Assembly: GCA_963829575.1 (NCBI GenBank)
Contig: CAWHJF010000021.1
Location: forward strand, 160,767-224,766
DNA: 64,000 nucleotides
Reading direction: 5' to 3'
Source of the DNA: an uncultured Sporolactobacillaceae bacterium
GTDB taxonomy: Bacteria; Bacillota; Bacilli; Bacillales; Sporolactobacillaceae
In this document: positions 21,528 to 44,345 of the stretch, in pieces
Layout: each line of letters opens with the position of its first letter
Numbering within the stretch: position 1 is the first letter of the stretch
Notes under the pieces: model-generated
Database searches by the model: none
The model's input: the letters and a program-made list of their open reading frames with translations, nothing else
Told to the model about the DNA's origin: nothing
Translations under genes and position numbers: made by a program

Positions 21528-23625
21528 TCATTTTCCTTTCAGACTACTTTTAATAACTGTCCAGTTGGTCGTTGGTCGTTGACAGACGTGATGTTCACAT
21601 AGAAAGTAAGTGGTGTTTCCATCCATCAGAGCAAAGTCGCGAGTAAACGACGCCAACTCTTCAAGTGTCGCTTTTTTCCCAACAAGGCTTAACACTTCAG
21701 GGTGAAACGCGGCGTTCCATTTTTTAAAAGAAGACTCTGGGAATCCCTCTTTGAAATCGATTTGATCTTCAGGCTCTAAAACCACCAATTCTTTTGTTCC
21801 GCCCTTCGCCAATAGATAAGACATGAGTAAAAAGGTATGACCGATCGGATAACGATTGGCATCGGCACCGAATCGGTTGAACATCTTGTCCACGTACATC
21901 TCAAGATCAAGGTCGCCGGTACGTCGTGCGAGCTTCAATAGTGTGAAAGACGCCACGCTGTTTCCCGATGGAATCGCCCCATCATAAATGTCTTTCGGAC
22001 GGGTAAACAACTCGTCTGTTTCTCGGCTCAGAAAGAACCCAAAATTTTCATGATCCCAAAACGTTCGGATCATATCGTCCGCCCACGTTTTCATCTTATT
22101 GAGATAAGTGCCCTCGAAAGTAGCTTCATAAAGGGCGTCACAGGCCCACAACATAAACGCATAATCATCTAAGTAACCCTCATAACGCACGTCACCCTCG
22201 CGATAACGGGCCATCCAGCGTCCATCTTGGAGGAGCATTTTTTCCAAAAACTCGAATGCTTTTGTGGCGGCATTCAGGTATTTGAAGTCTCCAAAAGCTT
22301 GATACGCCTTTGCAAGGGCTGTGATCATTAATCCATTCCAAGAGGTGAGGATCTTATCATCTTTATGTGGGTGGATGCGCGTTTCACGATGGTTAAAAAG
22401 TGCCTCACGACTTGAGGACAATCGTGACTTTAGTTCGTTTATTTCCATATCAAACTCCGATGCCGCCTCTTCTAGAGATGAGCTAATCAAGTGCGGAATG
22501 GACGCCCCCTCAAAGTTCCCCTGTCTTGTGATATTATATAGATTGCAGAAGAACGCACCTTCCTCATCCCCCAGCACATCCACGATCTCGTCCGGATTCC
22601 AGACATAAAACTTGCCTTCAACGCCTTCGGAATCGGCATCCTCCGCTGAATAAAAACCACCTTCTGGATCGGTCAATTTGTGCGTCACATACTGATAGAT
22701 TCCATCCACAATGTCTCGATAAAGTGGTTTTTGTGTGACCTGATAGGCTTCAGAGTAAGCGATCATCAACATCGCTTGGTCGTACAACATCTTCTCGAAA
22801 TGGGGAACCAACCACTCCCGATCCACCGAGTATCGAGCAAAACCACCACCCAGGTGATCCCATATTCCGCCACTCGCCATCCCATCCAAGGTTTTTTCAA
22901 CCAGTTTGAGGGCACGCGGTTCCTTATGTAAACGATGGATCCTAAGTAAATACATGAGTTGGTGAGGCGAGGGAAATTTAGGCTCTTGGCCAAACCCGCC
23001 ATAGACAGGGTCAAACGTATTTTTAAAATGTTCATAGGTCTTAGTGAGGATATTAGGTGCAATAGCCTCCGCCTCTTCTCCTGCTTTCTGCAAAGCCTCC
23101 ACAATCTGTTCACTTGCCTGAACGATCTGCGTCTGGTCTTCTTTGTATTGGGCGGATAATGATCTTAACACATCCATAAAACCAGGCTGTCCGTAGCGAC
23201 TTTCTTTCGGGAAATACATCCCCGCATAAAACGGTTTTTTATCGGGTGTTAGAAACACACTAAGCGGCCAACCACCATGTCCCGTTAACCCCTGACAGAC
23301 TGTCATATAGACCGAATCTAAATCCGGCCGTTCCTCGCGATCCACCTTAACTGAAACAAAATGCGCATTTAATAATTTTGCAACCTCTTCATCTTCAAAT
23401 GATTCGTGGGCCATTACATGGCACCAATGGCATGTGGACCAATGTCACCTCTAGGAATATCCGATGGATACAAACACTGGCTTGCCCTCCCGTTTGGCCT
23501 TCTGAAAGGCTTCAGGGCCCCATGCATACCAATCAACTGGGTTATGTGCATGTTGGAGTAAATAAGGCGATTTCTCATTGATTAAGCCTATTTGTATACC
23601 TCGGATCTTTTTTGTCTTTTACCAT
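21528..23625 (-). pseudogene. yyaL: YyaL-like thioredoxin-domain protein (DUF255 plus six-hairpin domain), interrupted near its 5' end
   Basis: ORF 21528..23414 begins at ..MAHESFEDEEVAKLLN.., which is internal to the family. Upstream in frame is [23 protein letters not shown], an 18-nt insert with TAG and TGA at 23436-23453. Further upstream the ATG at 23625 ([14 protein letters not shown]) is out of frame by 1 nt with [19 protein letters not shown]. Confidence 0.8.
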
Positions 23626-23783
23626 TTTAACACGTCCTTTTTCTGATTTTCCTTAGTAAAGATCTCCCTTTTTATGAGCGGCTCCATCAAGCCAGTTTAA
23701 TTTTTGGAGAAGCTTTACATTTTTATTTATCATAACATTAAAAAAGTGACGACACTTGGTCGTCACTTCTAATTTAACCATTA
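23413..23783. repeat. Direct repeat copy 1 (yyaL 5' end, its upstream region, and a terminator)
   Basis: Aligns by eye over its whole length with 25442-25795. It shares the 18-nt insert, the ...TTTTAACACGTCC.. block, GGCTCCATCAAGCCAGT, and the GTCGTCACTTCTAAT end. Confidence 0.85.
23741..23767 (-). terminator. Terminator of the 119-aa gene (inside repeat copy 1)
   Basis: AGTGACGAC-ACTTG-GTCGTCACT, with a T-run on the minus strand. Confidence 0.65.
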
Positions 23784-23793
23784 AAACAGATTT

Positions 23794-24123
23794 TTAGTTT
23801 AAGATATCAATTTCAATGCTTCTGAATCTTATATTGTCTTTTTTCTCCAACTCAATTAAATATTTCCCAAATTCAATTATAGTTGGATTTGAAATGTCAT
23901 CTAAATTTATAACTCTGTCTACATGAATCCATATTGACCTTGAATCCTCGAGAATAATTATTCCATTATACTCTGATTCAATTGATATTGATGCTATTAC
24001 AATTATTCCATCATAAGTTAAGAGAACATTATTATCATCTATTCTATAACCTGTATTTTTGGAAATATAATTCCCACCAGCCATTTCATCATATAAAATA
24101 AACGTCAAATCAACTTTTTCCAT
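23794..24123 (-). CDS. Hypothetical protein (109 aa from ATG 24123), AT-rich cassette gene
   Basis: The ORF has GGGGG 4 nt upstream of ATG 24123. No recognisable motif. It is divergent from the Abi gene. Confidence 0.5.
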   Translation of the reverse strand: MEKVDLTFILYDEMAGGNYISKNTGYRIDDNNVLLTYDGIIVIASISIESEYNGIIILEDSRSIWIHVDRVINLDDISNPTIIEFGKYLIELEKKDNIRFRSIEIDILN

Positions 24124-24352
24124 AGAACCCCCACGAATTAAATTAATTACCATACGTCTATATATTTTCTTAGAAGAATTAAAATAAAAGTGGAAATCTT
24201 ACCCAACGAACAAATTCATTTTTGGCTTTCTGGTCTCGTCTCTGTTTGAACGGCAAATTTGTTAAATAGGAGACGGAATGTAAAAACCTACTATTGATCT
24301 CGTATAGACAAACATCGTGGACGATTGCCACCATACTTCCTTTCGATTATAC

Positions 24353-24440
24353 TTGACTGATTATTAATACACCTTTAAAATATAGCTAACAGAACCCACC
24401 ACGCCTCTTTACAATGCGGACCACGGTGGGTCATTTTTTT
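24353..24440 (+). promoter_or_regulatory. Element E1: sigma-A-like promoter plus a short hairpin/T-run leader upstream of abi
   Basis: TTGACT (24353-24358), 17 nt, TAAAAT (24376-24381). Then ACCCACC...GGTGGGT followed by CATTTTTTT (24394-24440). A homologous copy lies at 26340-26424. Confidence 0.55.
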
Positions 24441-24460
24441 ATTTAAGGGGTTTATTTCTA

Positions 24461-25398
24461 ATGGACATTAGTAAAAATTTTAAAGAAATAAAAAATCCCA
24501 CTACCTTTAGTGAACAAATTGAACTGAACTCTATAAAAGCCGAAATTTAAAAATTGATGATATAGACTTTGCAGAAAACACCTTGAAGAGAATTAATTAT
24601 TATCGATTGCGAGGTTACACTTTAACTCTGATGGATCCTCAGAATAATGAGATCTTTGTAGACGGTAGCACATTTAATCAATTAATTTCGTTATATGAAT
24701 TTGATCGAAGACTTAGACAGTTATTTATGGCGTTCTTGGAAAGGATAGAAATTGCATTCCGTACACATATTACATACCATCTATCTCACTCATATGGTTC
24801 TTTGGGGTATACAAATAAAGAGGTCTTTATTAATGAAGATTTACACGAGGGCTTTCTCCTTGAGCTAGAAAAAGCCTTATTAAAAGGGAAAAATAGTGAA
24901 TCATTTGTAAAGCACTACTATGAGAATTATAACGGGGAATTTCCAATTTGGGTTGCTATTGAGGTTGCTTCATTTGGTACCATATCTAAATTATATAAAA
25001 ACCTAATACCTGAAATTAAGCAGGTCATCGGAAAAAACTATTATAATATCCCCTACTCTTATATTGAGAGTTGGTTGCAAACTCTATCAAACGTAAGAAA
25101 TGTTTGTGCTCATTATGGTAGATTATATAATAAAAATTTAACTTTTAAACCTCGTCTATTTAAAGAAGAAAGAAAAAACATAAATAATAATAAATTGTTT
25201 GCCGCAATCTATATTGCAATAAGACTGTTGACTAAGGTTGAAGGTAATAGATTTATTACTGATTTAGAGGCACTCATTCTCGAATATGAAAACCATGTTG
25301 ATTTTACATATATTGGACTACCCTTTGAATGGAAAGAACTCTTACTAATTATTAATTCTAGGAAACAAAGTAAAAATTCATCTTTTAACCTGAAATGA
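24461..25398 (+). pseudogene. Abi_2 (AbiD/AbiF-like) abortive-infection protein, disrupted by a 5-nt tandem duplication
   Basis: The main ORF has the Abi_2 hallmarks INYYRLRGY, SFGTISKLY and SNVRNVCAHYGRLYN. The N-terminus (MDISKNFKEIKNPTTFSEQIEL) is in another frame. GAACTGAACT at 24521-24530 is a duplicated GAACT, and removing one copy restores EQIELYKSRNLKIDD. Confidence 0.8.
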
Positions 25399-25441: not shown

Positions 25442-25795
25442 ATTACATGACACGAATGACATGTGGACCAATGTCACCTCTAGGAATAGCCGTTGGAAAC
25501 AAACACTGGCTTGCCCTCCCGCTTCGCCTTTTGAAAGGCTTCTGGGCCCCACGCATACCAATCCACTGGGTTATGTGCATGTTGGAGTAAATAAGGTGAC
25601 TTCTATACCTCGGATTCTTTTTGTCTTTAAACATTTTAACACGTCCTTTGTTGGCTTTTTCTTAAGTTTTGATCCCCTTTTTTGGACGGCTCCATCAAGC
25701 CAGTGAAATTTTGGGGAAGCTTTACTTTTTATTTATTATAACAATAAAAACGTGACACTTGTCTTTAACTCGTCGTCACTTCTAATATAACCGTT
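25442..25795. repeat. Direct repeat copy 2 (orphan yyaL 5' fragment plus upstream region)
   Basis: The minus strand reads [60 protein letters not shown], after which homology stops. It has the same 18-nt insert (25465-25482) and lacks about 20 nt of the NRLINEK region. Confidence 0.85.
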
Positions 25796-26339: not shown

Positions 26340-26424
26340 GTGACTGCTTATTAATATTTCTTTAAAATATATTAAACACCTCCCACGTCACTTCACAATG
26401 TGGACAACTATGGGTCATTTTTTG
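26340..26424 (+). promoter_or_regulatory. Element E2: orphan copy of the E1 promoter/leader with no plus-strand gene downstream
   Basis: GTGACT (26340-26345), 17 nt, TAAAAT (26363-26368). Then ..CCCACG..ACAATGTGGAC..TGGGTCATTTTTT. It is collinear with E1. Confidence 0.5.
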
Positions 26425-26489
26425 TAAATCATATGAGTTTAAATTATAGTTTGAAATGAATTAAGGATAAGGATAAGAATCAGACTCAA

Positions 26490-26880
26490 TTAGCTCTTAC
26501 TGAGGGATAATTCGAGGTTGTTTAAATCCAAAATAAAACCGCTCTTTAAAAGTATGTCTAAACCTAGTAATCCGCTATGTTCATTAGGCAAAATGGATAC
26601 ATCAATCTCAACGTTGCTTATTTTAAAATCCCCAATTTCTATGGAATCCATTTTCTTCGAATAAAAATGGACGTTTCCACCAATCCCATAAGCCTCATAA
26701 ACTGTGTCTCCATTCTCGTAGGAGACACCAATCTCCGACAAAAAATCTGGATTAATCACGGTGTGAGAAGATCCTGTATCAATGACAACGTTATTTGATC
26801 TCCATAGATTTCCCTCGAAAAGTAACATTTAATGTGGTGGTTATAAGTTGTCCATTATATTCAATTTCCGCGAATATACC
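26490..26880 (-). pseudogene. Retropepsin-like (clan AA) aspartic protease, frameshifted
   Basis: ORF 26490..26828 carries the VVIDTGSSHTVI active-site motif and GLLGLDIL. The expected N-terminal strand (AEIEYNGQLITTTLNVTFRGKSMEIK) lies in a different frame at 26810-26880 and is itself out of frame with the upstream ORF. Confidence 0.6.
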
Positions 26881-27115
26881 CCACTCTCATTAAAGGATCT
26901 TTTCTAATGTGGATAATTAATTCTTCATTAATTGTATGATAGATAATTCCATCTGGACCCGATTTAAAAAATTCTTGATTGGCTTCTTCATTCGTCAACG
27001 GCTTATTAATCGCTACATCATCCACAATTTTCAAATCTCCATCTTGATGAAAATCTAGAATGGAAACGAGAACAAATTGATTTGGAAATTTTTCTCTAAC
27101 CTCTTGCCATTTCAT
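26861..27115 (-). CDS. Small protein (84 aa), possibly DUF5678-like; may originally have been fused or coupled to the protease
   Basis: The ORF is MKWQEVREKFPNQFVLVSILD... The family assignment is from memory only. Confidence 0.4.
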   Translation of the reverse strand: MKWQEVREKFPNQFVLVSILDFHQDGDLKIVDDVAINKPLTNEEANQEFFKSGPDGIIYHTINEELIIHIRKDPLMRVGYIRGN

Positions 27116-27392
27116 CTAGATCACCCTTTCTTTCTCAAAATTATAAGATATTTTCGAAAAGGAGTCCATTAATAAAAATCTTAACGTGAGGCGTGTTATT
27201 AAGTTGAATCTATTAAACAAGATCATAATGATCTTCAACCTCTGCAAGCATATAAACCGGTTTTATTTGATCAAGCTCTTCTCGTGCGTCATTTCAAAAG
27301 TCAGTTGACACCCCTTGCGCATGATTGGCTCTATAGCCATCGACAATGCATCAAGCATCTCCACTCTCATATCCTGATTGGCAAAATTTAGC

Positions 27393-28373
27393 TTAGCGAC
27401 ATTCCACCATGTCATCTTCCAACAAAGAAAACAGCCTATCAAACTTTTCGATTTGATAGGCGTTTCTATGCGTTTTTTTATCTTCGCTAAATTCTCGAAA
27501 AAGCTTATTGGTTTTCTCTTGCACATCCTTACCAGTAATTGTTAAGTACGCAACGAAGATAACAATTATGAGTGTTAAAATAACACTTACTTTCTCAGTT
27601 CCATATCCTAATCCGCCAGCACTGCGATCCTTCCCAAACCAATCTGCAAATGATGCTCCTAATGGACGCGTTAAAATATAGGCAATCCAAAATGTTGCAA
27701 TTCCGTTTGCTTTGATTAGCCCAAAGCACAATCCTGGTATCGCAAATAAACAAGTAAACATGATCCCAGAGGCTAAAAATCCCATATGGAAGGTTTCAGC
27801 AGTTAAATCTCCTAATGCTGTTCCCATAGCAAATGTTGCTAGAACGGTTGCCCAATAAAAGAGTTCCCGACGTTTGGTATTGATGCTATGAATAGATAAT
27901 GTTTTCTCGGTTTTATACCACAACCGAAAAATAACAAGTAAAGCGACAAAAAAGGCAGAAGCAGATAACCAATATGGAATAAGAAGCACCACATGGGCGA
28001 CATCCGCAGCCATTGTTCCAAAAATACTGACCATACAAACCATTAACCAATAAACCCAGGGTATATAACGATTTACTTTAAATTGTAGGATTAAAGCAAC
28101 AATAAAACCTAATGTACCTAGTATTACAGCAAGATATTGATTAACATGAAACACGAGATAATCGGATGTCGCTTCCCCCATTGCCGTTGACAAAAGTTTA
28201 ATGATCCAGAAATAAATGGTGATTTCGGGGACTTTTGTAAGTAATTGTTTGGTGTTTTCAACTGAAACGCGATTATTCAAAATGATCTTTTCCTTCCTTA
28301 AAAGGTTATAAATGACCTCTAACAATTCTTTTTCTTTAATTTCCCTGACTGATAAGTAAATGTTCATACGCAA
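27393..28373 (-). CDS. Polytopic membrane protein resembling the COG4705 family (internal duplication)
   Basis: KVPEITIYFWIIKLLSTAMGEATSDYL is repeated as RELFYWATVLATFAMGTALGDLTAETF. An alternative TTG start at 28280 follows AAGGAAGGA. Confidence 0.6.
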   Translation of the reverse strand: MRMNIYLSVREIKEKELLEVIYNLLRKEKIILNNRVSVENTKQLLTKVPEITIYFWIIKLLSTAMGEATSDYLVFHVNQYLAVILGTLGFIVALILQFKVNRYIPWVYWLMVCMVSIFGTMAADVAHVVLLIPYWLSASAFFVALLVIFRLWYKTEKTLSIHSINTKRRELFYWATVLATFAMGTALGDLTAETFHMGFLASGIMFTCLFAIPGLCFGLIKANGIATFWIAYILTRPLGASFADWFGKDRSAGGLGYGTEKVSVILTLIIVIFVAYLTITGKDVQEKTNKLFREFSEDKKTHRNAYQIEKFDRLFSLLEDDMVECR

Positions 28374-28546
28374 TAGTATTAAGTTATCATTATCTAAATA
28401 GACGATGCTAGCCCAAAAAAAGTTTAAAGGAATCTTTTTTTATTTATTAGCAAATCTTTCGGAAGGTTATTGATTCTCTTGAATTTGCTACCCATCAAGA
28501 TAAGTCTAAAGGGTACCTCATTCCTTTTTTTCTTTACTATCCTCAA

Positions 28547-29692
28547 CTAGATCTGATTAATTAATTGATTCCATTCCTTGGAAGACATCATATCTAAATT
28601 CCAGATTCCCACGCCAGCCATGCGATATTTTTCGACTAGATCAAAATAGATTTGGAGAGAACGATCATTTGTCAGCCATACTTTATATCGTTTTCCATTT
28701 TTATTATAAGTTACATCGTAAGTGGCTTGTTTAGGGTCCCATGTTTCAGGACGATTCGTTTGTTTCAATAGCTTGCTCACATATTGATTTGCTAAAGCCA
28801 TGCTCGTAATCGTATTGCCACTTTGATCGACTTCCCAGATTCTTGTATATGAGGGTAATCCAATGATAAGTTTTTGAGGGGAGACACCTGTTTCAATGAG
28901 GTGTTTGACATTTCCCTCTAACCAATTAAGAGAAGTAACAGGCCCGGGTGAAGAGTCAGTGGACCAATGTTGGTCATAGCCCATAAAAACAATGTAGTCG
29001 CTATATTTGCTAAGTTGTCGATTGAAAGGAATAAGTGTTGAAGAACGATCCAGTGGTTCAGGCTGTATATCAATTGATAAAGTGATATGATTTGGAATGA
29101 TTGACTTAGATAGACTCATGACAAATTGACTGAACGCCTTACGATCGTTTAATGGAATTTGTTCTATGTCTAAATTTAATCCGTCTAAATGGTTCTGTTG
29201 AGCCCTAGTTTTAATTTCTCGAATGACTTGTTTCCAAACTTTTGAGTTCTTTAAGAATTGATGAGTTGAAGTATCTGATTGGTTCCCCAACGTAACCCTT
29301 CCCCAAACCTTTTTACCTTCTTTTTGCAGACTTGAAATAAAAGTAGGAGAACAATTAAGATGTAGATTGTAGGAACTGTTTATAGTTGCAAATAAAGGGG
29401 AAACGATTTTAAGCTTATCGTAACTTGCAAGCTGATGGTTGTTTCCGACCATCCATCCTAATGTCACCAGTTTTGAAGGAGCAATTTCTGATGGGTTCTT
29501 AGTCGTAGGTTTAGATCGATTTGCTAAATGAGATGGATCAGCTGTTTTTAAAGCCCAACTCCCATTCATACTATTAGGGTGCTGTATAAAAATAATTAAA
29601 GTTGGAATTCCAATGACCGCTATAGCGATAAGAATGATAAAAATAACCATTCGCCGAAAAAAACGTTGAATATATGATGAAAGATTGTCCAT
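28547..29692 (-). CDS. Membrane-anchored GH18-family glycosyl hydrolase (YdhD/YaaH-like)
   Basis: 381 aa with an N-terminal TM helix and a GH18 motif LDGLNLDIEQI. Confidence 0.8.
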   Translation of the reverse strand: MDNLSSYIQRFFRRMVIFIILIAIAVIGIPTLIIFIQHPNSMNGSWALKTADPSHLANRSKPTTKNPSEIAPSKLVTLGWMVGNNHQLASYDKLKIVSPLFATINSSYNLHLNCSPTFISSLQKEGKKVWGRVTLGNQSDTSTHQFLKNSKVWKQVIREIKTRAQQNHLDGLNLDIEQIPLNDRKAFSQFVMSLSKSIIPNHITLSIDIQPEPLDRSSTLIPFNRQLSKYSDYIVFMGYDQHWSTDSSPGPVTSLNWLEGNVKHLIETGVSPQKLIIGLPSYTRIWEVDQSGNTITSMALANQYVSKLLKQTNRPETWDPKQATYDVTYNKNGKRYKVWLTNDRSLQIYFDLVEKYRMAGVGIWNLDMMSSKEWNQLINQI

Positions 29693-29975
29693 TCCTTCAC
29701 TTCCTGTAGTAATTTATTATTAATTAATATATATGAGAGGAACTACAGAATAGTAGTTAAACTCTATCAAAAAATTTAATCCTTTATAAGTTTAATTCTA
29801 CTTTTAGTCATTACATATTAATTATGCTAATTTGATAGTTTAACAAAAAAAGGGATGCTAATCACTGAACAAAAAGCATACCCAAATTTTATTAATGCCG
29901 CTCATTTAATTATTCTCTTCACAAAATGAAACACTAATTGGTTGTTCAAAGTCTGTTTATGAATTTAATATGTCA

Positions 29976-30713
29976 TTATCTCGCTGTAGAAACACGTTGA
30001 CGTAATCGTTTTATTCCCTGTTCCTTCGTTTTCAACTCAACATTATCATTTAAAGAGACTAAATGGTCGTCTCCATATTTTCGTTGTAAGGCCCAACTAA
30101 TTAGTTGATCCGCAATGACTGTATTTTTTGGTAATAAGGGACCATGCATATAAGTCCCTATAAAATGCCCCTCTTGATAGCCTTCCGTCTGATCAACTTC
30201 ATTATTACCCCATCCATGATTGACCTTCCCTAACGGTTTCCCATTATGGAAAGTTTGACCAGCATGGTTTTCAAAGCCTAAAATATTTCCGAAGTCTTCT
30301 GAGTTAACTAAAATATCTCCAACTAATCGTTTATTCTTGGCTTTTGTATAATAATCAAAAAGTCCGATCCCCTTCATTTTAATTCCATCTTTTGTCTCAT
30401 AATAATGTCCCAAGAGTTGATAGCCGCCACAAATCGCTAAACAAACCACACGATCTTGAATGGCCGCTTTTATATTTTTTGAAAGAGAATGCTCAAAATA
30501 TTGACTTATTAATTGTTGTTCGCGGTCTCCCCCACCTCCGATATACAACAAATCGGCATCACCTAAAGAAGCTTGCTCCAATTGTGTAACCTCTTTTACT
30601 TTCATCTCAATTCCACGCCACTTACTTCTTTTTTCTAATACTTGAATATTTCCACGATCTCCATATAAATTTAGATGTTTTGGAAAAAAGTTATATACAA
30701 TGAGTTCTTTCAT
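29976..30713 (-). CDS. gatD: GatD-type glutamine amidotransferase (CobB/CobQ-like), partner of MurT
   Basis: The nucleophile motif LAICGGYQLLG and the C-terminal YMHGPLLPKN are present. There is a 4-nt overlap with the upstream murT-like gene. Confidence 0.8.
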   Translation of the reverse strand: MKELIVYNFFPKHLNLYGDRGNIQVLEKRSKWRGIEMKVKEVTQLEQASLGDADLLYIGGGGDREQQLISQYFEHSLSKNIKAAIQDRVVCLAICGGYQLLGHYYETKDGIKMKGIGLFDYYTKAKNKRLVGDILVNSEDFGNILGFENHAGQTFHNGKPLGKVNHGWGNNEVDQTEGYQEGHFIGTYMHGPLLPKNTVIADQLISWALQRKYGDDHLVSLNDNVELKTKEQGIKRLRQRVSTAR

Positions 30714-32032
30714 ACGGGTTGTACCTTTCTATTTAGGTCTTGTTTGGCAACATCTAGTCCTGTATAAGTCGGTAAAATATAGGTTTGAATCGGGTGCGCG
30801 AGAGCATAAGTGATCGCGTCATGTATGCTTGGAATTTCCTTAACTTTGAACGTCTCCAGTTCCGCATATTTAAGTCGAAGGACAAGTTCACTCGAACGAG
30901 TTCCTGCACAGATAATCGTTTCGATTTCGAGTCGGTTTAACGCTTCAAAATCAACATCCCATATCCAGGAAATATCCTCGCCATCGGCTATATTATCATT
31001 TAAAATAAGCAAAAGCTGTTTAGGATCGGAATCCCCCACTAGGTCATTAATTATGACATTTGTCCCTGAAGGGTTTTTGTTTAGATTTAAAGTGTAAGGA
31101 ACACCTTGGTGATAAAAGGTTTCCATCCGACCATTTTTAATGGAAAATTGGTCTAAAGCTTTCTGTATGCGATTGTAATTCATACCTGACTCATAAGCGG
31201 TTGAAATAGCCGCTAAAACATTATATATGTTAAAGCTCCCTTTTAATGGAGTTGCATAAGGAAGCCCTCCTATTTGAAAACTTAGGTTTGGACTAGTTCT
31301 GGCTTCAGTCACCTCATAATCAGGTTGTTTTCTTGTAAAACCACAATGACATTTATAATTGCCTAATTGGCCATAGTGCATATAAAGGTAGGTCATCTCA
31401 TCTCCGCAATTTGGACAATGAACCGATTCTCCTTGAGCAAAATTACTAAAATTAAGCGCACCGCTTTTCACACCGAAATACGTGTTTTCTTTCTGTAAAG
31501 AATCAAACTGCATCACAAGCGGGTCATCGGTATTTAAAATAAGTTCCGTTTTGATTGGTTTAATGGCGTTCATCATGTTTTTTATTAGAACATCTATTTC
31601 CCCGTAACGGTCTAATTGATCACGAAAAAAATTAAGAATCACAATTCGATCTGGATGAATATTATTGATGACTTGTGGTAGACTTCCTTCGTCAACTTCC
31701 AGCACAGCATAATCTGAATTCACCCTTCCTAGATAATTTGCTGCTTTAATAAGAGAAGCTGTAATACCTGTTAACATATTTGCACCTTCACTATTATGAA
31801 CAACTGATTGATTAGCTTGTTTCATCATATTCACAAGTAAATTAGTCGTGGTTGTCTTCCCATTTGTACCCGTCACAAAGAGGATGTTCTTTACGTCTAT
31901 TTTCATCATTTTCAATATCCTTGGGGTTAGTTTTAAAGCAACAGAACCTGAAATTGTAGTTCCTCTTCGACCTCCTAAACGACTAAGTAGGTAGACTGCT
32001 TTTGAGATTAAAATGGTCAATACTAAACGCAT
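30710..32032 (-). CDS. murT: MurT-type Mur ligase family protein (lipid II isoglutaminyl synthase subunit-like)
   Basis: It has the P-loop VTGTNGKTTT, the Cys4 ribbon CPNCGDEM...KCHCG typical of MurT, and a C-terminal DUF1727-like region. The ATG at 32032 has a GAGG RBS. The longer track ORF adds a low-complexity extension. Confidence 0.8.
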   Translation of the reverse strand: MRLVLTILISKAVYLLSRLGGRRGTTISGSVALKLTPRILKMMKIDVKNILFVTGTNGKTTTTNLLVNMMKQANQSVVHNSEGANMLTGITASLIKAANYLGRVNSDYAVLEVDEGSLPQVINNIHPDRIVILNFFRDQLDRYGEIDVLIKNMMNAIKPIKTELILNTDDPLVMQFDSLQKENTYFGVKSGALNFSNFAQGESVHCPNCGDEMTYLYMHYGQLGNYKCHCGFTRKQPDYEVTEARTSPNLSFQIGGLPYATPLKGSFNIYNVLAAISTAYESGMNYNRIQKALDQFSIKNGRMETFYHQGVPYTLNLNKNPSGTNVIINDLVGDSDPKQLLLILNDNIADGEDISWIWDVDFEALNRLEIETIICAGTRSSELVLRLKYAELETFKVKEIPSIHDAITYALAHPIQTYILPTYTGLDVAKQDLNRKVQPV

Positions 32033-32456
32033 ATTTCTTCGCCTCAATTCCTTAGTTCTTTGATGTTCGTCACTTTTCGCACTAGAGGAATCGTAAAGAT
32101 AAGATTTTCTTGGACTAGTATTAGTTGACGAAATTCTAGTATTAAAATTGACTGCTTGTTTTTCATAATTTTTAATCAAGTACCAAAAAACTAAGGTATT
32201 CTAATTTTTCATACACTAATAGTTTATCGATAAAAAATTATTAAAGTATAAATAACAAATTAAAAATTGATGAGAAATAAATTAAAAAACGCTCATTTAT
32301 ATATTCCTCAAATAGAACTAATCAAGAAACTTAGAATCAATTGGTTCTATTTGGTATTATTTTCAGTAAACGTACAATTATTAAAGGGAAATAATAACAC
32401 ATACATATATTTAAACCGCCCCAATATAGGACGGCTCTATGATCTAATTGATCCAA

Positions 32457-35111
32457 TTAAATTCCTCTTAAATCCTCTGTGACTTGTTTCTGAGAATAAG
32501 AGATCGACCTTGTTACTCCGATTACTGTGGAGAGAACCGCAAAAATGAGTAAGAGAGCGAGATACCCCCAAGGAATAAATAGCGTTTCAGGTGGTGGGTC
32601 AAATACGCCTTTAAGCATCTTAACTAGTAATTCTGTGACCCCAAACCCAAGTATCAAACCTATGACCCCTCCTGGTAGAAGGACCATGAAGCCCTCACTC
32701 CACAAAAACGATCCTAACTGATTGCGTTTTGCCCCAAGCGCAGTTAATAATGCAAACGTACGCCTTCTCTCATTAAATCCAAGAGCCAGAATCAAACCAG
32801 CTGTTCCAGCGACGAACAAAACCGAAAAGATCAATTCAAGTCGTGTGAGTCCATGAAGGTTAAACGCTGTAAGTCCCGAACTAATTATACTTTGGGCGGT
32901 ATTAAGATCCGTGACTTTTGCCCCTGGAATGGATGCAAGAACTTTTGAAACTTGTTTAGCGACTATTCCAGGATCTTTATTGGTTTTAATTAGTACCGTT
33001 TCGTGTGCACTCGTCCCCGTCATTTTACTAATATAAGAATCATTAGCTAAAAGAAAGGAATCACGAGGTGCTGTAGGAAATTCACGCACAACCCCTATAA
33101 AACGAAAAGGAATAACATGGTATTTATGGTCTTTTCCACTTTGTAAACGTAACCGAATCCGATCCCCTTTTTGAAGTCGGTAATCCTTTACAGTCTCCTC
33201 GGAAACCAAAACACCATCTGGAGTATTTGCTAAAAGATTCAGGGTTTTTGGTGCGTTCCCATTCTGGAAAAACGCGTTGGACATACTTGTTACTTTTGAA
33301 ATGGACTTAGGATTAATGCCATACATATCCTGTAGATCATTTCCTACAAAGGCATAGCGGTGTTGCATCGCTTCTGCCTTCACTACCCCTGGTACTTGCT
33401 GAATATTACTTAACTTAGTAGCCACTGGTGCATGTGTGGAACTTGTAACCGTCACATCGGCACCATTCGTCAGTGCCGCATCAACATGCGATTGGACATT
33501 ATAGGTTAGGTTAAATATGGAAGTTGAAACGGCAAATGAAATGGCAAGCGCAGTTAAAATAATGCCTCTTATGATCAACACACGTTGACGACTAAATGTA
33601 GCTGCCACAATGGAAGATAAGTTCTTAGAAAACGGTTTAACCAGACCTGATAAAAGTGACGTTGAGCCAAATAATCTAAATAATAGACGCATGAAAAGTA
33701 ACGATCCACCTACCCATAAGAAGAATGGGGCGATAAATGCGGTATAATCAACAGAAGTTTGGGGAACTCCCTCCGGCGCCATCACAATTTGGTAACCTGT
33801 ACTCGCAGACTTCCAAAAAAAGAGTCCGGCAATGACAAGAAAAATCACATCTAAATAAAGCTTTTGCCATAGTGGTTTTGTTACTCGGCCTAAGGGCTTC
33901 TGACTGGAAACGGTCGCATTCCTCATTTCCCGCCAAGCTGGTACAATCACCGCTGAAAGAGAAAGTATTAATCCGATTACAGCAGAAATAATCATCCAAA
34001 AGAATAGCGTTGCCCCATAGATAAGATGGGTCGTTGAGATAAGGCTTGATAGCACCCAACTTAATATAAACCCTAAACCAATTCCTCCGATTCCTATAAT
34101 TAGAGCTTCTCCAACTTGGAGAGTAAGAATTTGTTTTAATGAAGCCCCCCTTACTCGAAGCAGCCCTTGATTCATTCGGTGACGTTCACGACCGGAATTT
34201 ACTACTGCTAAAGTAAGCAAAATAGCCAAAAACGCTCCAGGTAAACCTAAGAAAAGAAAGAGCACATTCGCATATAAAGCATCCGCACGAACGCCTTCTA
34301 AACGAGCAGCGAGATTGTTTCCAATAATTCCAGAACCTGCAATGCGTGCCTCCACATTATTAGCCAACTGATTAACTTGGGTATAGGCTTTGTTAGGGCT
34401 AGAGGTCAGAGGGTGATTGATTTTGACATGCAATTGCGTATGAACCGTATCAGGCTTAGCAGATTTTTGTGGATCAAAAACCTGATGCCAAAGTGATGTC
34501 GGTAAAATCATGACATTATCTGGAGGGGCTTGTAACGTTGCGTTTGATGGTGAACCCACCTTTTGGAAAAGTGAATCAGCATTCGGTAAAGCCACTACAC
34601 CTTCTACTTTTACATCAACTGGAGTTAATCCTACTCGCTTAATGGACACGGTATCGCCAACAGAAACGTGGAGGTTGGCTGCAGTTTGTTGGGCAATCAG
34701 TACCCCTTGTTGTTTCCCAACGAGAGATTGAATCTGCCCATGGAAAAGCCTGTGATAATTGTCATCGACGCCGAGAACTTTACCTGATGCGGTGACCTGA
34801 GTAGTCGAGCCAGTCGTCGCCTGAAATCCACTGACATCAGCGAAGCCTACCGTTGAAAGGGCTTTGTAACCCGTCTCTTTCTTTACAGCTCGTACCACTT
34901 GATCCGCTTTTGACGGATCCGTGAGTAAGATTTGCCAGTCAACTGGAACATCTTTGACGGCTTTTTGGGTCATACCGGCGTCACTACTTACAATAAAACT
35001 GCCTAGTGAAGCAATCAGTGCTACGGTTAAAGAAACGCCTAAAATTGCACCAAGTAAGCGGCCATTTAAACTGATGAGTAACCCTTTCAACCAAATTAGC
35101 CAAGTCTTCAT
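32457..35111 (-). CDS. ABC transporter permease with two FtsX-type domains (MacB-like, 884 aa)
   Basis: Two 4-TM FtsX-like modules are separated by large extracytoplasmic domains. The gene is translationally coupled to two ATPase genes. Confidence 0.8.
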   Translation of the reverse strand: MKTWLIWLKGLLISLNGRLLGAILGVSLTVALIASLGSFIVSSDAGMTQKAVKDVPVDWQILLTDPSKADQVVRAVKKETGYKALSTVGFADVSGFQATTGSTTQVTASGKVLGVDDNYHRLFHGQIQSLVGKQQGVLIAQQTAANLHVSVGDTVSIKRVGLTPVDVKVEGVVALPNADSLFQKVGSPSNATLQAPPDNVMILPTSLWHQVFDPQKSAKPDTVHTQLHVKINHPLTSSPNKAYTQVNQLANNVEARIAGSGIIGNNLAARLEGVRADALYANVLFLFLGLPGAFLAILLTLAVVNSGRERHRMNQGLLRVRGASLKQILTLQVGEALIIGIGGIGLGFILSWVLSSLISTTHLIYGATLFFWMIISAVIGLILSLSAVIVPAWREMRNATVSSQKPLGRVTKPLWQKLYLDVIFLVIAGLFFWKSASTGYQIVMAPEGVPQTSVDYTAFIAPFFLWVGGSLLFMRLLFRLFGSTSLLSGLVKPFSKNLSSIVAATFSRQRVLIIRGIILTALAISFAVSTSIFNLTYNVQSHVDAALTNGADVTVTSSTHAPVATKLSNIQQVPGVVKAEAMQHRYAFVGNDLQDMYGINPKSISKVTSMSNAFFQNGNAPKTLNLLANTPDGVLVSEETVKDYRLQKGDRIRLRLQSGKDHKYHVIPFRFIGVVREFPTAPRDSFLLANDSYISKMTGTSAHETVLIKTNKDPGIVAKQVSKVLASIPGAKVTDLNTAQSIISSGLTAFNLHGLTRLELIFSVLFVAGTAGLILALGFNERRRTFALLTALGAKRNQLGSFLWSEGFMVLLPGGVIGLILGFGVTELLVKMLKGVFDPPPETLFIPWGYLALLLIFAVLSTVIGVTRSISYSQKQVTEDLRGI

Positions 35112-35824
35112 TGAGACGTCACCTCCAATCTCCCTTGTTTAATGGTCCATACCTGATCCAACTGTTTGACAACTTCATTGTCATGGGTGGCAATTACTAA
35201 GGCCATCCCCTCTTCTTCCGAGGTTTCAAGTAAGACTTTCATAAGATGTCGGGCAGTGTGATGATCTAATTGTCCAGATGGTTCATCCGCAAGAATAACC
35301 TTAGGCTTACAGACTAACGCCCTAGCTGCCGCCACACGTTGTGCCTGGCCGCCTGACAATTCTTCAGGTAGTTTATCTTTTAAATGGTCGATTTCCAGTT
35401 TCCTTAATTCATTCAAGGCAAGGTTTTCCGTTATCGCTTTTGGCTGATTCATTATTAAGAGAGGTAAGGCCACGTTCTCTATAACCGATAACGATGGAAT
35501 AAGGCTGGGCATCTGAAAAATATAGCTGATCCCCATTGGGCGAATTGGATGAATGTTGTGATTCTCAAAATAACTAAAATCAACGTGACCTTTTGATGGC
35601 TTTTCGAGCTTCCCTAAAACCTGTAAAAGCGTCGATTTCCCACTACCGGATTGCCCAACAAGGGCAATCCGATCCCCGGTTTTAATCTCACACGAAGCTG
35701 ATTCCAGGGCAACAACTTCTATTCCTCCTGCCTCATAAGTCCGGCTCACTTGTTCAGTTTTAATTAAAGTTATTTGGTTGATACCTTGCATGGTTCCTTC
35801 TGTCTTCATTACCTTTTGGCTCAT
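35108..35824 (-). CDS. ABC transporter ATP-binding protein
   Basis: Walker A (GQSGSGKST), signature (LSGGQAQR) and Walker B (ILADEP) are present. Both ends have ATGA-type overlaps. Confidence 0.9.
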   Translation of the reverse strand: MSQKVMKTEGTMQGINQITLIKTEQVSRTYEAGGIEVVALESASCEIKTGDRIALVGQSGSGKSTLLQVLGKLEKPSKGHVDFSYFENHNIHPIRPMGISYIFQMPSLIPSLSVIENVALPLLIMNQPKAITENLALNELRKLEIDHLKDKLPEELSGGQAQRVAAARALVCKPKVILADEPSGQLDHHTARHLMKVLLETSEEEGMALVIATHDNEVVKQLDQVWTIKQGRLEVTSQ

Positions 35825-36492
35825 TCAAGAACGCTCCCATCGTACAAACGGATAATCCGATCACATTGTGCTGCTAAGGTTTCACTATGTGTCGCCACAA
35901 TTGTCGCGTTTCCTGCTTTTCGTCGTTCCTCTAAAAGATTGATGATGATTTTTTCCGTTTCTTGGTCGACTTCACCTGTTGGTTCATCAGCAATGAGTAA
36001 TTTGGGAGACGTCGATAAAGCAATTGCAAGGCCCGCACGTGCAGCTTCCCCACCTGATAAGTGCTTTGGGTAAGCTTTTTTACGATGGAGAAGTCCTACC
36101 CTTTTCAATAACTCATCCAGACTTTGGTTTCCTTTTGACTTAGCGAGACTCATTTGAAGTTGGATGTTCGCCTCAACCGTTAAATGTTGAAACAAGTTTC
36201 CATTCTGCAACAAAACGCCGATTTCCGCTGATCTCATGCGTGCTCTCTGTGCTTCTGAGCGCCTTGTTAAACGCTTGCCATCTAACTCCACATACCCGCC
36301 ATCCGGTTCATCAATTCCAACTAAGCAAGACAGTAACGTGGATTTTCCACTCCCTGAAGGTCCCATGATAGAAAGGAATTCCCCTTCCTTGAGGAAAAAA
36401 CTGACCCCTCTAAGCGCCATGATTTCTTCTTCAGGAGTATGATAGAATCGATAAAGCTCATTGGCTTTTAAGAAATCCATTACTAATTCCAC
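35821..36492 (-). CDS. ABC transporter ATP-binding protein (second ATPase)
   Basis: Walker A (GPSGSGKST), signature (LSGGEAAR) and Walker B (LIADEP) are present. The start is either GTG 36492 or ATG 36480. Confidence 0.9.
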   Translation of the reverse strand: MELVMDFLKANELYRFYHTPEEEIMALRGVSFFLKEGEFLSIMGPSGSGKSTLLSCLVGIDEPDGGYVELDGKRLTRRSEAQRARMRSAEIGVLLQNGNLFQHLTVEANIQLQMSLAKSKGNQSLDELLKRVGLLHRKKAYPKHLSGGEAARAGLAIALSTSPKLLIADEPTGEVDQETEKIIINLLEERRKAGNATIVATHSETLAAQCDRIIRLYDGSVLE

Positions 36493-37121
36493 CCAAAGCT
36501 ATCTGACATCTTCTTCCATTGATCCACGTTGTCTGCACCATATGGCGCCCATAATTTCAGGACTTCAAGTTTATTATTGTTTTGATAGAGATAGGCGCTA
36601 TCCTCTAATCGAACTTGTTTTCCTGTTACCGAATTCGGATCCGAGTTTGAGCTATAAACCACTCGAATCGCTTTTCCAGAAGGAAGTTGGACTTCGGTGA
36701 CACTTTTCACCTTGACCGCTCGTTCCTGTTTCTGTAATTGAGGAATCCAATTTGTCTTCACCAAATCCGCTGAAAGATTGGATGAAAACGGGGTTAAGGA
36801 CGTGACACTAACACCATCTAATTTACTAACAAATTGGACCATGTTGCCTTTTGTTGAACGCGCCCAACCTTCTGGAACGACTAAATGATAGCCATTCTGA
36901 CTGGATTTATAGGAAATAAAAGCTTGTGAATCTGGAATATCTCCTACCGGATGTGTTTCCGGAACCACTGGTTTTTCTTTGGTTGACGAACTTTGATTCG
37001 TTGATGACGACGGGGTAGAAGGATTTGATTGGGTAGTAGTTGGCGTAGACGCACTGCCGCAAGCGACAAGTGATGCCGTTAATACAATTGAACAAGTCGT
37101 TAAAGCAATCTTATTTATCAT
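36483..37121 (-). CDS. Lipoprotein (lipobox LVACGS) with a Ser/Thr/Pro-rich linker; first gene of the ABC operon
   Basis: The signal peptide MINKIALTTCSIVLTASLVAC-G is followed by a low-complexity linker and then a roughly 150-aa globular domain of unknown family. Confidence 0.75.
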   Translation of the reverse strand: MINKIALTTCSIVLTASLVACGSASTPTTTQSNPSTPSSSTNQSSSTKEKPVVPETHPVGDIPDSQAFISYKSSQNGYHLVVPEGWARSTKGNMVQFVSKLDGVSVTSLTPFSSNLSADLVKTNWIPQLQKQERAVKVKSVTEVQLPSGKAIRVVYSSNSDPNSVTGKQVRLEDSAYLYQNNNKLEVLKLWAPYGADNVDQWKKMSDSFGWN

Positions 37122-37329
37122 GGTACATCCTCCTAGAATAGTAACTTTTGTTACGAATTAAACTTAAAAGTAACGGTTTTAACCGTTGGACAGGTTCATC
37201 TTACCTATTAAGTCTGAGAATGTAATCAAATAATAATGAGAGCTTGATGAGAAAATTCCAATAGACTTTTCATTTGTTTTTATAAGAAAGGTGTAAAATA
37301 AGAGAAAGAAAATTAAATGAGGTGTTAGT

Positions 37330-39452: not shown

Positions 39453-39567
39453 GTTGAGTCTGGGCTTTTTAATATCCTTTTATTCACTATATTCACAGGG
39501 GGAAATTCAATTTTAAATAAAAGTAAAATATAAAACACCTGTAAATAAATATTAATTGGAGTATTAC

Positions 39568-44169: not shown

Positions 44170-44345
44170 ATTTATAAACATGGCACCCATGACCTGTGCG
44201 TTAGTATATCCAACAGATACGAAACCGGGCTCGTTTTCAAGTTTTCGCTTTTTCAAAAGCTTCCTCTCCGTAAGGAAACCCTTCCACAGGGTTATATGTG
44301 TGTTGGCGTATGTAAGATGACTTCTCAGCGTTTAAAATTAGTTGG
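44170..44345 (-). pseudogene. Fourth, strongly decayed yyaL 5' fragment
   Basis: The minus strand reads ..[30 protein letters not shown], then (shifted) ENEPGFVSVGYTNAQVMGAM. It is recognisably the [31 protein letters not shown] segment. Confidence 0.6.

Follow-up and report, generated by a model that had tools for sequence, protein, structure and literature searches.

The window, by which we mean the whole 64,000-nt stretch analysed here, carries on its minus strand the 3' part of a yyaL (DUF255) gene, preceded by an interrupted 5' end and, further upstream, by three displaced yyaL 5' ends (Table 1). The 628-aa ORF was matched over profile positions 55 to 163 of PF03190 (E = 1.4e-43), and it deviates from the family at 3 of 155 highly conserved columns, the family mean being 2.1. 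The gene-linked junction (copy 1) reads, on the minus strand, GGA TAT TCC, TAG AGG TGA CAT TGG TCC, ACA TGC CAT TGG TGC CAT GTA ATG. The 18-nt insert TAGAGGTGACATTGGTCC between GYS and TCHWCHVM that had been reported in the first-pass annotation was confirmed at both of its positions, in copies 1 and 2, and this 18-mer occurs exactly twice in the window, with no occurrence expected (100 shuffles). On re-reading the sequence, the AGGTGA noted 6 nt ahead of the second TCC in copy 1 was there, as was the suspected upstream frameshift, an extra A at ~23582-23583 that breaks the 5' ORF: the shifted frame ends at a stop after 16 codons and is not rescued by any canonical start codon. With the frameshift corrected, the copy-1 5' fragment has 91% amino acid identity to the YyaL N-terminus of Pullulanibacillus sp. 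KACC 23026, to whose YyaL the 3' part in the window is only 66% identical. TGGTG stands 7 nt ahead of the CHVM Met in every copy. Ordinary decoding of this yyaL would yield at best an N-terminally truncated protein without the CxxC motif, and yyaL function in this genome has probably been lost.

Displaced yyaL ends and cassettes in the window

Copies 1 and 2 have ~1 kb of common homology (23413-24439 and 25442-26423), at 91% over the first 163 nt, and the cassette between them holds an abiF RNA motif (24395-24431; Rfam RF03085, 38.3 bits) and an Abi_2 gene (24583-25398; Pfam, E = 2.4e-52). Copy 2 has a 20-nt deletion in its 5' fragment and a Trp codon mutated to TCG, so that its core reads TGT CAT TCG TGT CAT GTA AT, 25442 being the end of yyaL homology. 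Copy 3 is as it was first described, AGC TAA CGTTGGTTATTTGGAGTATT TGT CAT TGG TGT CAC (39573-39613), and the copy-4 junction, possibly that of the oldest displaced end, reads GGATATACTAACGCACAGGTCATGGGTGCCATGT / TTATAAATAA. The earlier observation that the displaced copies lose yyaL homology right after CH(V) holds, and lesions are present in 4/4 of the 5' copies. The island between junctions 2 and 3 carries genes for an aspartyl protease, DUF347, GH18, GatD/MurT paralogues, an ABC/FtsX transporter, a response regulator and a histidine kinase.

Pfam scans and tblastn with a large serine recombinase from a homologous locus (L083, below) found no recombinase gene or remnant in the 64,000-nt window. 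An Rfam scan of the window at gathering threshold returned only RNase P and abiF, with no SECIS or other recoding family, and an IS or intron remnant was rejected for the lack of a transposase or structured RNA beyond these two. An assembly artefact was likewise rejected, as the feature recurs in two copies within the window and in many independent assemblies.

Table 1. Features of the yyaL locus and of the displaced yyaL ends in the window (a point marks features listed without strand).
Feature	Position	Strand	Basis or remarks
yyaL 3' ORF, 628 aa	21528..23414	-	First residue is the Met of CHVM; native B' side of the junction
Predicted attP/attB common core, ACA TGC CAT TGG TGC CAT GTA	23415..23435	-	Sequence; homologous attP-type dyad centres; complete elements
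18-nt insert TAGAGGTGACATTGGTCC	23436..23453	-	Stop codon with the putative distal P arm; junction of attR type
Surrogate yyaL 5' fragment, copy 1 (ATG at 23625)	23454..23625	-	Frameshifted by an extra A
Rest of the right-end block common to the two youngest cassettes	23626..24439	.	Homologous to 25635-26423; direct-repeat families D1-D7
Cassette cargo (2,029-bp cassette, copy 2 to copy 1)	24395..25398	+	abiF RNA motif and Abi_2 gene
Copy 2	25442..25634	-	5' fragment 25483-25634, identical 18-nt insert 25465-25482, decayed core
Island cargo between junctions 2 and 3	26424..39551	.	Pfam scans
Copy-3 junction, attP-like imperfect palindrome	39552..39610	-	Stop and insert 39588-39610 (20-nt insert related to that of copy 1)
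yyaL 5' fragment, copy 3	39611..39790	-	~75% identical to copy 1; frameshifted
yyaL 5' fragment, copy 4, most decayed	44170..44350	-	Internal stops; tblastn and sequence

Homologous junctions in other genomes

The window is not alone in its insert, for Bacilli, Clostridia, metagenomes and viral contigs together yielded 81 distinct junctions with a stop plus 12-58 nt at the same codon. TRR was permitted at the stop position in the search, so TGG could have been found; the codon right after the GYS serine codon was nevertheless TAA, TAG or TGA in 81/81 junctions and TGG in none, and when the stop requirement was dropped, all seven true viral matches among those listed still carried a stop. The three stop codons are used interchangeably, and insert length modulo 3 is evenly distributed over the junction variants. 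A comparison with orthologues had been proposed in the first-pass annotation: among the matches listed in a YyaL protein scan of genome contigs, distant orthologues (relatives of at most 48% identity) were uninterrupted at the insert point in 77 of the 78 that could be scored. The target is also intact in the close relatives P0003 and P0004. About a quarter of the closest homologue clusters are interrupted, and among the best 120 clusters 34 are gene calls with their start at the CHVM Met or a few codons ahead of TCHWCH.

The insert of the window aligns with an insert family found at L207, L081 and L083, the last of which has its insert directly after a recombinase gene, and the insert family of copy 3 is gene-linked at L211. 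The modules of 5' fragment plus insert at L081 (Scopulibacillus) and L083 (Pseudalkalibacillus) differ at 16 of 162 nt (~90% identity), and each of the two loci has a 3' protein with only 51-54% identity to that of the window. The yyaL 5' fragment with its insert is thus a mobile module, and one element can enter different hosts. Sister-species pairs had different inserts in every pair, which argues for recurrent integration. The 5' ends that accompany the inserts (surrogate 5' ends) are conserved at the protein level, with synonymous sites saturated and a pN/pS of about 0.2. At conserved columns, the 3' ORFs of interrupted alleles are no richer in changes (2.00 versus 2.12, p = 0.78). In the metagenome sample, 10 of the 45 3' ORFs that could be assessed are truncated.

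Attachment-site symmetry, recombinase genes and complete elements

The DNA encoding T-C-H-W-C-H-V is itself near-palindromic (ACATGyCAyTGGTGyCATGT), and sites whose yyaL homology runs out after CAYGT are imperfect palindromes of ~54 bp with their centre between the T and the GG of the Trp codon. About this centre, attP-type symmetry extends over 18-22 of 27 positions at L177, L202, L148, L087, L138, L193, L109 and L171, and the insert is the outer left arm of the palindrome, the mirror of the distal arm in P'. By analogy, the crossover centre of the window site would lie at the same point of the Trp codon (23426/23425), and its insert occupies positions about 11-28 counted from there. Copy 3 retains such a palindrome, with 14-nt arms (39552-39565 and 39588-39601) that are 93% complementary and a 22-nt spacer containing TGT CAT TGG TGT CAC (39573-39587). 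At copy 2, a repeat search found no inverted repeat, and on reading the sequence the right flank does not mirror the P arm; the copy-2 junction is therefore not a clean attP.

At L083 a 510-aa Resolvase/Recombinase/Zn_ribbon_recom gene adjoins the surrogate 5' end, and a large serine recombinase gene adjoins the surrogate also at L126, L155, L170, L202, L145, L205 and L206; the Parageobacillus group carries recombinase genes. Among the IMG/VR viral contigs, all seven true matches are of attP type and six of the seven have an adjoining recombinase gene. Neither the N-terminal peptide nor the L083 recombinase gave a match in scans of viral contigs, and tblastn of the YyaL N-terminus against GenBank phages gave one weak match. 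Of ~62 metagenomic junctions with 1.5 kb or more of sequence upstream, only 6 had a recombinase gene directly upstream. Most are orphans, probably left by element deletion through recombination between the two 5' copies. Five complete elements were found within single contigs: L170 (8.65 kb, with its recombinase gene), L115, L091, L199 and L146. In all five, attL is an uninterrupted native ...GYS-T-CHWCH followed by P', attR is a surrogate 5' end, stop and insert followed by the native 3' gene, and the core is identical in both.

Based on these data, it is very probable that the insert is the outer P arm of a large-serine-recombinase attachment site in yyaL, and ribosome hopping is not needed to account for it. 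That it might be part of a recombination site had been offered in the first-pass annotation as an alternative, and it is this suggestion that the palindromic attP, the adjoining large serine recombinase and the complete elements with attL and attR have borne out. Phages and integrative elements with a large serine recombinase would target the DNA coding for T-C-H-W-C-H-V in yyaL by means of an attP of ~54 bp, an imperfect palindrome centred, like the target, within the Trp codon, whose inner sequence is that of the target and whose outer arms are the element's own. Just outside the P arm the element would carry the surrogate yyaL 5' end, consisting of a ribosome-binding site, ATG and ~53-60 codons up to ...SIGYS, and then the stop. 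Recombination between attP and attB, presumably catalysed by the adjoining recombinase, would split the host yyaL, leaving at attL the native 5' end, uninterrupted through CHWCHV, joined to P', and at attR the surrogate 5' end, stop, distal P arm and core joined to the native 3' gene.

Given the homologous junctions and the complete elements with their attR, the window would thus hold one attR-type junction and three older ones. Its site at 23415-23453 would be the attR, and the copies at 25.4, 39.6 and 44.2 kb would be older junctions pushed upstream by later insertions. The four junctions would then delimit a 21-kb accumulation of cassettes and islands that includes Abi_2, transporters and a two-component system. 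As to the stack itself, the attachment-site reading gives no route for a new element into an existing attR, and so to four layers.

Alternative readings and known systems

The lead reading of the first-pass annotation was programmed bypassing of the kind known from T4 gene 60, in which ribosomes would take off at the serine codon before the stop and land on a matching serine codon past the gap, to give full-length YyaL. In its favour, copy 1 has TCC on both sides, a stop after the take-off codon and an AGGTGA that precedes the landing codon by 6 nt, and copy 3 is matched as well (AGC/AGT). Across junctions a serine codon is directly followed by the stop in 81/81, and cognate serine codons number 27 in frame and 14 in the other two frames taken together, about a fourfold excess per frame. 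Loci with long gaps resemble gene 60: L084 has AGC UAG, a hairpin UAGCCC...GGGCUA and GAGAGG 8 nt before AGU in a 55-nt gap, and L205/L206 have TCC UGA, a hairpin CCC-UUCG-GGG and a landing TCU after 47 nt. The protein-level constraint on surrogate 5' ends would also fit. Against this, the upstream ORF is broken in the window by frameshifts in copies 1 and 3 and by the deletion in copy 2, and the predicted fold of the junction RNA does not stand out from those of shuffled sequence (z = +0.26). It had been proposed to see whether the flanking codons stay matched while the gap varies, and they do so in a minority: a cognate in-frame serine codon precedes CHWCH in only 24/68 gene-linked junctions, while both such a codon and an in-frame start are missing from 34/68, the commonest non-cognate codons at the landing position being CCG, TTC, AGA and TGT, with TGA in 4. 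L186 and L099, with near-identical inserts, differ by an uncompensated switch in the class of the 'take-off' codon, and the flanking codons of L207 and L081 have drifted, again without compensation. Among the element-borne sites (recombinase-adjacent or on viral contigs, about a dozen), only 3-4 have a cognate codon. The serine-like codon after the gap may be vestigial, as it falls where attP has kept its resemblance to attB. The truncated metagenomic 3' ORFs add to the difficulty, and the independent inserts of sister species mean that long-term inheritance of an interrupted gene was not seen in the pairs compared. We therefore consider gene-60-like bypassing highly improbable at this locus.

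A rescue of the split gene, in which the element would supply an N-terminal fragment that is translated, ribosomes would terminate at its stop and re-initiate at an ATG, GTG or TTG within the insert or at the CHVM Met, and the two polypeptides would reassemble a working thioredoxin-like domain, fits the conserved stop, the protein-conserved surrogate, the TGGTG ahead of the CHVM Met in every copy and the interrupted-allele 3' ORFs with no excess changes at conserved columns. An in-frame start before CHWCH is present in 14/68 gene-linked junctions, gene calls beginning MLISTCHWCH, MPTCHWCH and MSTCHWCH exist, and in L205/L206 a hairpin begins with the UGA stop and has its 3' half (GGGG) 5 nt ahead of an in-frame ATG, the classic layout of translational coupling. 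In most junctions, however, the only in-frame start is the Met that follows CHWCHV, which would leave the invariant CxxC out of both fragments; attL still encodes the native N-terminal fragment, which makes the surrogate redundant; the surrogate ORF in the window is frameshifted; and fragment complementation in the yyaL/DUF255 family would be a proposal at the level of sequence. This rescue is quite unlikely to be the explanation.

Two other readings fare worse. The 18-nt insert of the window is in frame (UAG R UGA H W S, where UGA-CAU-UGG-UCC resembles the codons for CHWC), as read-through or stop redefinition (selenocysteine at UGA, pyrrolysine at UAG) would have it, but with insert lengths evenly spread modulo 3, stops that are interchangeable and no SECIS in the Rfam scan of the window, we give this almost no credence. 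A purely local origin of the insert, by tandem duplication of the CATTGGT segment and long divergence in a dead gene, without any mobile element, can point to CATTGGTCC within the insert, which resembles the downstream CATTGGTGCC, and to the lesions in all window copies. Local duplication cannot explain 81 junction variants across classes, viral contigs, recombinase neighbours and mirrored P' arms, and the earlier suggestion to this effect was rejected as having practically no chance of being right. What stands of the decay alternative is that all four 5' copies are damaged; the insert itself is read as an attachment-site arm.

The attachment-site reading alone does not explain the protein conservation of the surrogate 5' ends or the invariable true stop. 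In a further reading, the surrogate would be a functional repair device, with ribosomes at the conserved stop, in some lineages at least, either hopping across the recombinase-binding arm or terminating and restarting inside it, so that the lysogen keeps an active YyaL; the coding gap would then follow from the inability of an attP half-site to code for the protein as well. Candidate lineages are those with Parageobacillus-type gaps of 47-55 nt (hairpin at the stop, SD-like element, matched serine codons) or short gaps such as TCC-18 nt-TCC. We regard such a device as unlikely.

For the window, the attachment-site reading means that an apparent recoding signal is the footprint of a serine recombinase, and that the disrupted yyaL fronts a 21-kb stack of decayed insertions. 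Our literature search found no description of the yyaL/DUF255 CxxC palindrome as an integration target, nor of elements whose protein-conserved copy of its 5' end invariably stops where their attP arm begins, and from its sequence distribution this palindrome is predicted to be a very common one in Bacilli and Clostridia. For annotation, hundreds of 'truncated thioredoxin-domain proteins' and 53-aa ORFs would be attR junctions, and recombinase toolkits would gain many predicted natural attP/attB pairs for one conserved 20-bp target.

Prophages and elements with large serine recombinases are well known inside protein-coding genes, e.g., SPbeta (SprA) in spsM, skin (SpoIVCA) in sigK, A118 in comK and Bxb1 in groEL1. 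The yyaL elements resemble them in having a Resolvase + Recombinase + Zn-ribbon protein beside a ~50-bp imperfect-palindrome attP, an attB in conserved coding sequence, hybrid attL and attR, and a split target gene. They differ in their target, the yyaL/DUF255 palindrome that codes for CxxC, and in carrying beside the attP a complete surrogate 5' end, conserved at the protein level, whose stop coincides with the P-arm edge; in the window, moreover, no recombinase was found and four junctions are stacked. The carrying along of a replacement end of the target gene is familiar from e14 and phage 21 in icd and from many tRNA-targeting elements. There, as here, the element supplies a copy of the displaced gene part, so the native end decays as a pseudo-fragment beside the prophage. 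Their replacement, however, fuses in frame through the common core and leaves the gene intact, whereas the yyaL elements place a stop and 12-58 nt of predicted recombinase-binding DNA between replacement and gene, so that standard decoding cannot join the two.

Serial accretion of islands at one integration hot spot gives tandem arrays with repeated att-like junctions, and the window is similar in that repeated partial ends of the target gene mark successive insertions, the older copies are more decayed, and the cargo consists of defence and accessory genes (Abi_2, transporters). Here the repeat is a 5' gene end plus P arm instead of a 3' tRNA end, and a 2-kb cassette that has no recombinase gene forms the youngest unit. 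The bypass cassette of T4 gene 60 is a 50-nt coding gap linked to a mobile MobA element (preprint by Manning and Atkins, 10.1101/2022.08.31.505936). The yyaL junctions differ in that codons are matched in only about a third of them, that recombinase-site symmetry explains the gap sequences, that the upstream ORF is frameshifted in the window copy, and that they are known from sequence alone. The two are alike in that a mobile element brings a non-coding gap into a conserved gene, with a stop right after the last sense codon, and some variants (window copy 1, L084, L205) also share the matched codons, the hairpin starting at the stop and the SD-like element. The yyaL elements may suggest a route to the origin of gene-60-type coding gaps, and were the surrogate 5' end to prove a repair device, the T4 gene 60 cassette would have in them a cellular counterpart linked to a recombinase.

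The interruption of yyaL and its distribution

On the minus strand, copy 1, the gene-linked one of the four yyaL 5' fragments, reads GTA TCC ATC GGA TAT TCC TAG AGG TGA CAT TGG TCC ACA TGC CAT TGG TGC CAT GTA ATG GCC, and the 628-aa ORF that starts at the ATG of CHVM matches the DUF255/Thioredox_DsbH profile from position 55 onward only, so that 18 nt interrupt the codons for GYS and TCHWCHVM. The first-pass annotation had placed this insert at the identical point of copies 1 and 2, which was borne out both by the reading of the sequence and by an exact second occurrence of the 18-mer, with no other in the window and none expected by chance. Its further observations also held: copy 3 has AGC TAA and a 20-nt insert ahead of ATT TGT CAT TGG TGT CAC, the SD-like AGGTGA of copy 1 lies 6 nt ahead of the second TCC, an extra A near 23582 breaks the copy-1 5' ORF, and the yyaL homology of the displaced copies ends right after CH(V). 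Copies 1 and 2 have ~1 kb of homology in common; in copy 2, 20 nt are deleted and the Trp codon TGG has become TCG, and copy 3 has a frameshift. That annotation had missed a fourth copy, heavily decayed, in which internal stops and a frameshift occur and the junction sequence GGATATACTAACGCACAGGTCATGGGTGCCATGT gives way to unrelated DNA; this may be the oldest of the displaced ends, and the degree of decay is greater in older copies.

Other genomes carry the interruption as well. Of the top 120 clusters of homologues of the 3' protein, 34 consist of 608-639-aa gene calls from many Bacillales genera, with a start at the CHVM Met or up to a few codons ahead of TCHWCH. Scopulibacillus darangshiensis, Sporolactobacillus pectinivorans and Parageobacillus genomosp. 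1 have, ahead of the short call, a PF03190 ORF of 53-60 aa with SIGYS at its end, then a stop, a short gap and (S/T)CHWCHVM, and the layout in Lacrimispora amygdalina (Clostridia) is identical. The insert point is uninterrupted in 77 of 78 scorable distant orthologues. A metagenome scan with a degenerate pattern yielded at least ~97 true junctions, and the metagenome matches listed, together with the genome loci, gave at least 81 different junction sequences, in which the insert is 12-58 nt long (mostly 15-21) and the three residues modulo 3 are evenly represented. Salibacterium salarium has interrupted-type (625 aa) and full-length (682 aa) YyaL homologues under one name (P0059, P0082), so an intact paralogue may persist alongside the targeted copy in some genomes.

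Attachment sites and layered insertions

That the insert might belong to a recombination site had been raised at first pass as an alternative, and it proved to be the correct one, given the palindromic sites, the adjacent recombinase genes and the whole elements with both attL and attR; four converging lines of evidence establish this reading at the level of sequence comparison. Junctions that lose yyaL homology after CAYGT are ~54-bp imperfect palindromes centred on the T|GG of the Trp codon (symmetry at 18-22 of 27 positions), in which the insert forms the distal arm on the left and is mirrored on the opposite side; in copy 3, 14-nt arms, 93% complementary, enclose a 22-nt spacer with the CHWCH codons. 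The DNA coding for T-C-H-W-C-H-V is itself near-palindromic (ACATGyCAyTGGTGyCATGT), and thus a natural dimer target. The 18-nt insert of the window lies at positions ~11-28 from the inferred centre; in serine integrases whose structures have been studied, this part of an attP half-site would be the distal motif to which the zinc-ribbon domain binds. It can be aligned with the inserts of a family comprising L207 and the Scopulibacillus (L081) and Pseudalkalibacillus (L083) loci, and the family of the copy-3 insert is also gene-linked, in locus L211.

In Pseudalkalibacillus hwajinpoensis, the yyaL 5' fragment starts ~60 nt past a 510-aa Resolvase + Recombinase + Zn_ribbon_recom gene, and homologous recombinase genes directly adjoin the module in L126, L155, L170, L202, L145, L205 and L206. 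The 5' fragment plus insert is a mobile module, because the Pseudalkalibacillus and Scopulibacillus versions differ at only 16 of 162 nt (~90% identity), whereas either 3' protein shows only 51-54% identity to that of the window. All seven true matches in IMG/VR viral contigs are of the attP type, six with a recombinase gene adjacent. Whole integrated elements, 2.3-8.7 kb in length, are present in five contigs: at the upstream junction the native 5' end is intact through CHWCH(V) and gives way to foreign DNA, and at the downstream one a different 5' fragment, stop and insert precede the native 3' gene, which is the attL/attR pattern of a putative site-specific recombinase. At L210:2068-3489, a 473-aa tyrosine integrase with an HSDR_N_2 domain occupies the place expected for the serine recombinase gene, 1.3 kb upstream of a surrogate (element-borne) yyaL 5' fragment. 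In a Thermacetogeniaceae MAG (L023:1671-2900), yyaL is intact and uninterrupted, with a decayed extra 5' fragment 1.1 kb upstream, possibly the trace of a since-lost element.

Features of the window
Feature	Position	Strand	Remarks
RNase P RNA, class B	15494-15874	-	309 bits
DEAD/MZB helicase + RNase_H_2 gene	16335-20938	-	mrfAB-like pair
628-aa yyaL 3' ORF	21528-23414	-	
attR-type junction	23415-23453	-	18-nt insert at 23436-23453
Cassette between copies 2 and 1			2,029 bp; Abi_2 gene and abiF RNA motif, without recombinase gene
abiF RNA motif directly 5' of Abi_2 abortive-infection gene	24395-25398	+	Rfam RF03085
Older junction (copy 2)	25442-25482	-	18-mer recurs at 25465-25482
Second abiF RNA copy	26378-26423	+	
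Accessory genes between copies 2 and 3			13 kb
Cargo	within 29976-39452		GatD/MurT-like paralogues (CobQ-type amidotransferase + Mur ligase)
Cargo	within 29976-39452		MacB/FtsX-type ABC transporter, two ATPase genes
Cargo	within 29976-39452		response regulator/histidine kinase pair
Older junction (copy 3)	39552-39610	-	AGC TAA, insert and CHWCH codons at 39573-39613
Intact zinc alcohol dehydrogenase paralogue	39857-40897		
Split zinc alcohol dehydrogenase	42890-43833	-	ADH_N in 43444-43833, ADH_zinc_N in 42890-43417
Older junction (copy 4)	~44170-44200	-	copy 4 at ~44170-44350

The helicase/RNase_H_2 pair, found downstream of yyaL in the window and in the related genomes L208 and L209, shows what natively lies downstream of the integration site. 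The stretches of L082 and L083 cover the pair only in part (RNase_H_2 and YpsA in L082, helicase in L083); the window, too, has YpsA. The class B RNase P RNA is consistent with a Bacillota chromosome. The 2,029-bp unit appears to be a defence cassette lacking a recombinase gene; its abiF motif scores 38.3 bits, just over the threshold of 37, and the second abiF copy, 2 kb off and 80% identical, is not followed by an intact Abi gene. The cargo resembles a cell-wall or peptide-antibiotic resistance module, and between copies 3 and 4 are alcohol dehydrogenase genes, the split one probably a pseudogene. No recombinase gene or remnant was found anywhere in the window. Between the copy-1 5' fragment and the YyaL N-terminus of Pullulanibacillus sp. 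KACC 23026, amino-acid identity is 91%, with the first 13 residues, which normally vary, included; the 3' protein and its counterpart there are only 66% identical, an indication that the 5' end and the 3' gene did not evolve together. We infer the order of the insertion events and the way in which a new element enters an existing attR. The feature is real and, as judged from sequence, explained as a recombination-site arm within a decayed stack of insertions.

Possible recoding at the junctions

The main idea of the first-pass annotation, a bypass like that of T4 gene 60, is unlikely at the window locus, where the upstream ORF is frameshifted and the junction RNA fold is unremarkable (z = +0.26). 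Nor are the flanking codons generally matched across homologous junctions, as a cognate in-frame Ser occurs in only 24 of 68 gene-linked junctions, an in-frame start in 14 and neither in 34; at element-borne sites (recombinase-adjacent or viral contigs) the cognate codon is found in only 3-4 of about a dozen. Near-identical inserts switch take-off codon class without compensation (AGT/TGT in L186 vs TCG/TGG in L099), and L207 has TCC where L081 and L083 have TTC. The Ser-like codon is possibly a vestige, because attP still mimics attB there. In an unselected metagenome sample, with some contigs of low coverage, the 3' ORF is truncated in 10 of 45 assessable cases, and sister species have different inserts, so long-term inheritance of an interrupted gene is not observed.

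A translational role of the surrogate 5' end, by hopping or by termination-restart, is nevertheless plausible. In 81 of 81 junctions (at least 81 being known), the codon after Ser is a true stop, under a search pattern, TRR, that permitted TGG; TGG never occurs, and by our own arithmetic would be expected in about one in six if the two purine positions were independent. Synonymous divergence among the surrogates is saturated (pS 0.83-0.86) and pN is only 0.17-0.19, the values of intact genes across phyla, with no homogenisation with the host's displaced 5' end. The long gaps of L084 (2905-3000) and of L205 (2610-2700) and L206, the latter two Parageobacillus-like metagenome contigs with a divergently oriented serine recombinase gene upstream, closely resemble the gene 60 gap. 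These variants have matched Ser codons, an SD-like element and a hairpin whose first bases are those of the stop. The L205/L206 gap has TCC UGA-CCC-UUCG-GGG-UCA, with in-frame ATGs and a landing TCU after 47 nt; that of L084 has AGC UAG-CCC...GGG-CUA, GAGAGG and AGU after 55 nt. In L205, the 3' half (GGGG) of the hairpin opened by the stop lies 5 nt before an in-frame ATG with the predicted product MKMKVRMLISTCHWCH..., a layout that would fit termination-restart at least as well as hopping. Intact 3' ORFs have no excess changes at 155 conserved columns (2.00 vs 2.12, p = 0.78), the window 3' protein having 3. The interest of the system lies in how widespread the integration target is, and in the unexplained protein-conserved, stop-terminated surrogate 5' end.

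Relation to known systems

A recent survey of gene-60 homologues concerns phage topoisomerase genes only (10.1101/2022.08.31.505936). In the literature we found no link of yyaL to bypassing or of bypassing to serine recombinases, and nothing on serine recombinases targeting thioredoxin-domain genes. The yyaL elements share the architecture of serine-integrase prophages inserted in genes, i.e., SPbeta in spsM, skin in sigK and A118 in comK. Like e14 and phage 21 at icd, where the element brings a replacement gene end, they too bring one, but unlike at icd, the replacement in yyaL is parted from its gene by a recombinase-binding arm.
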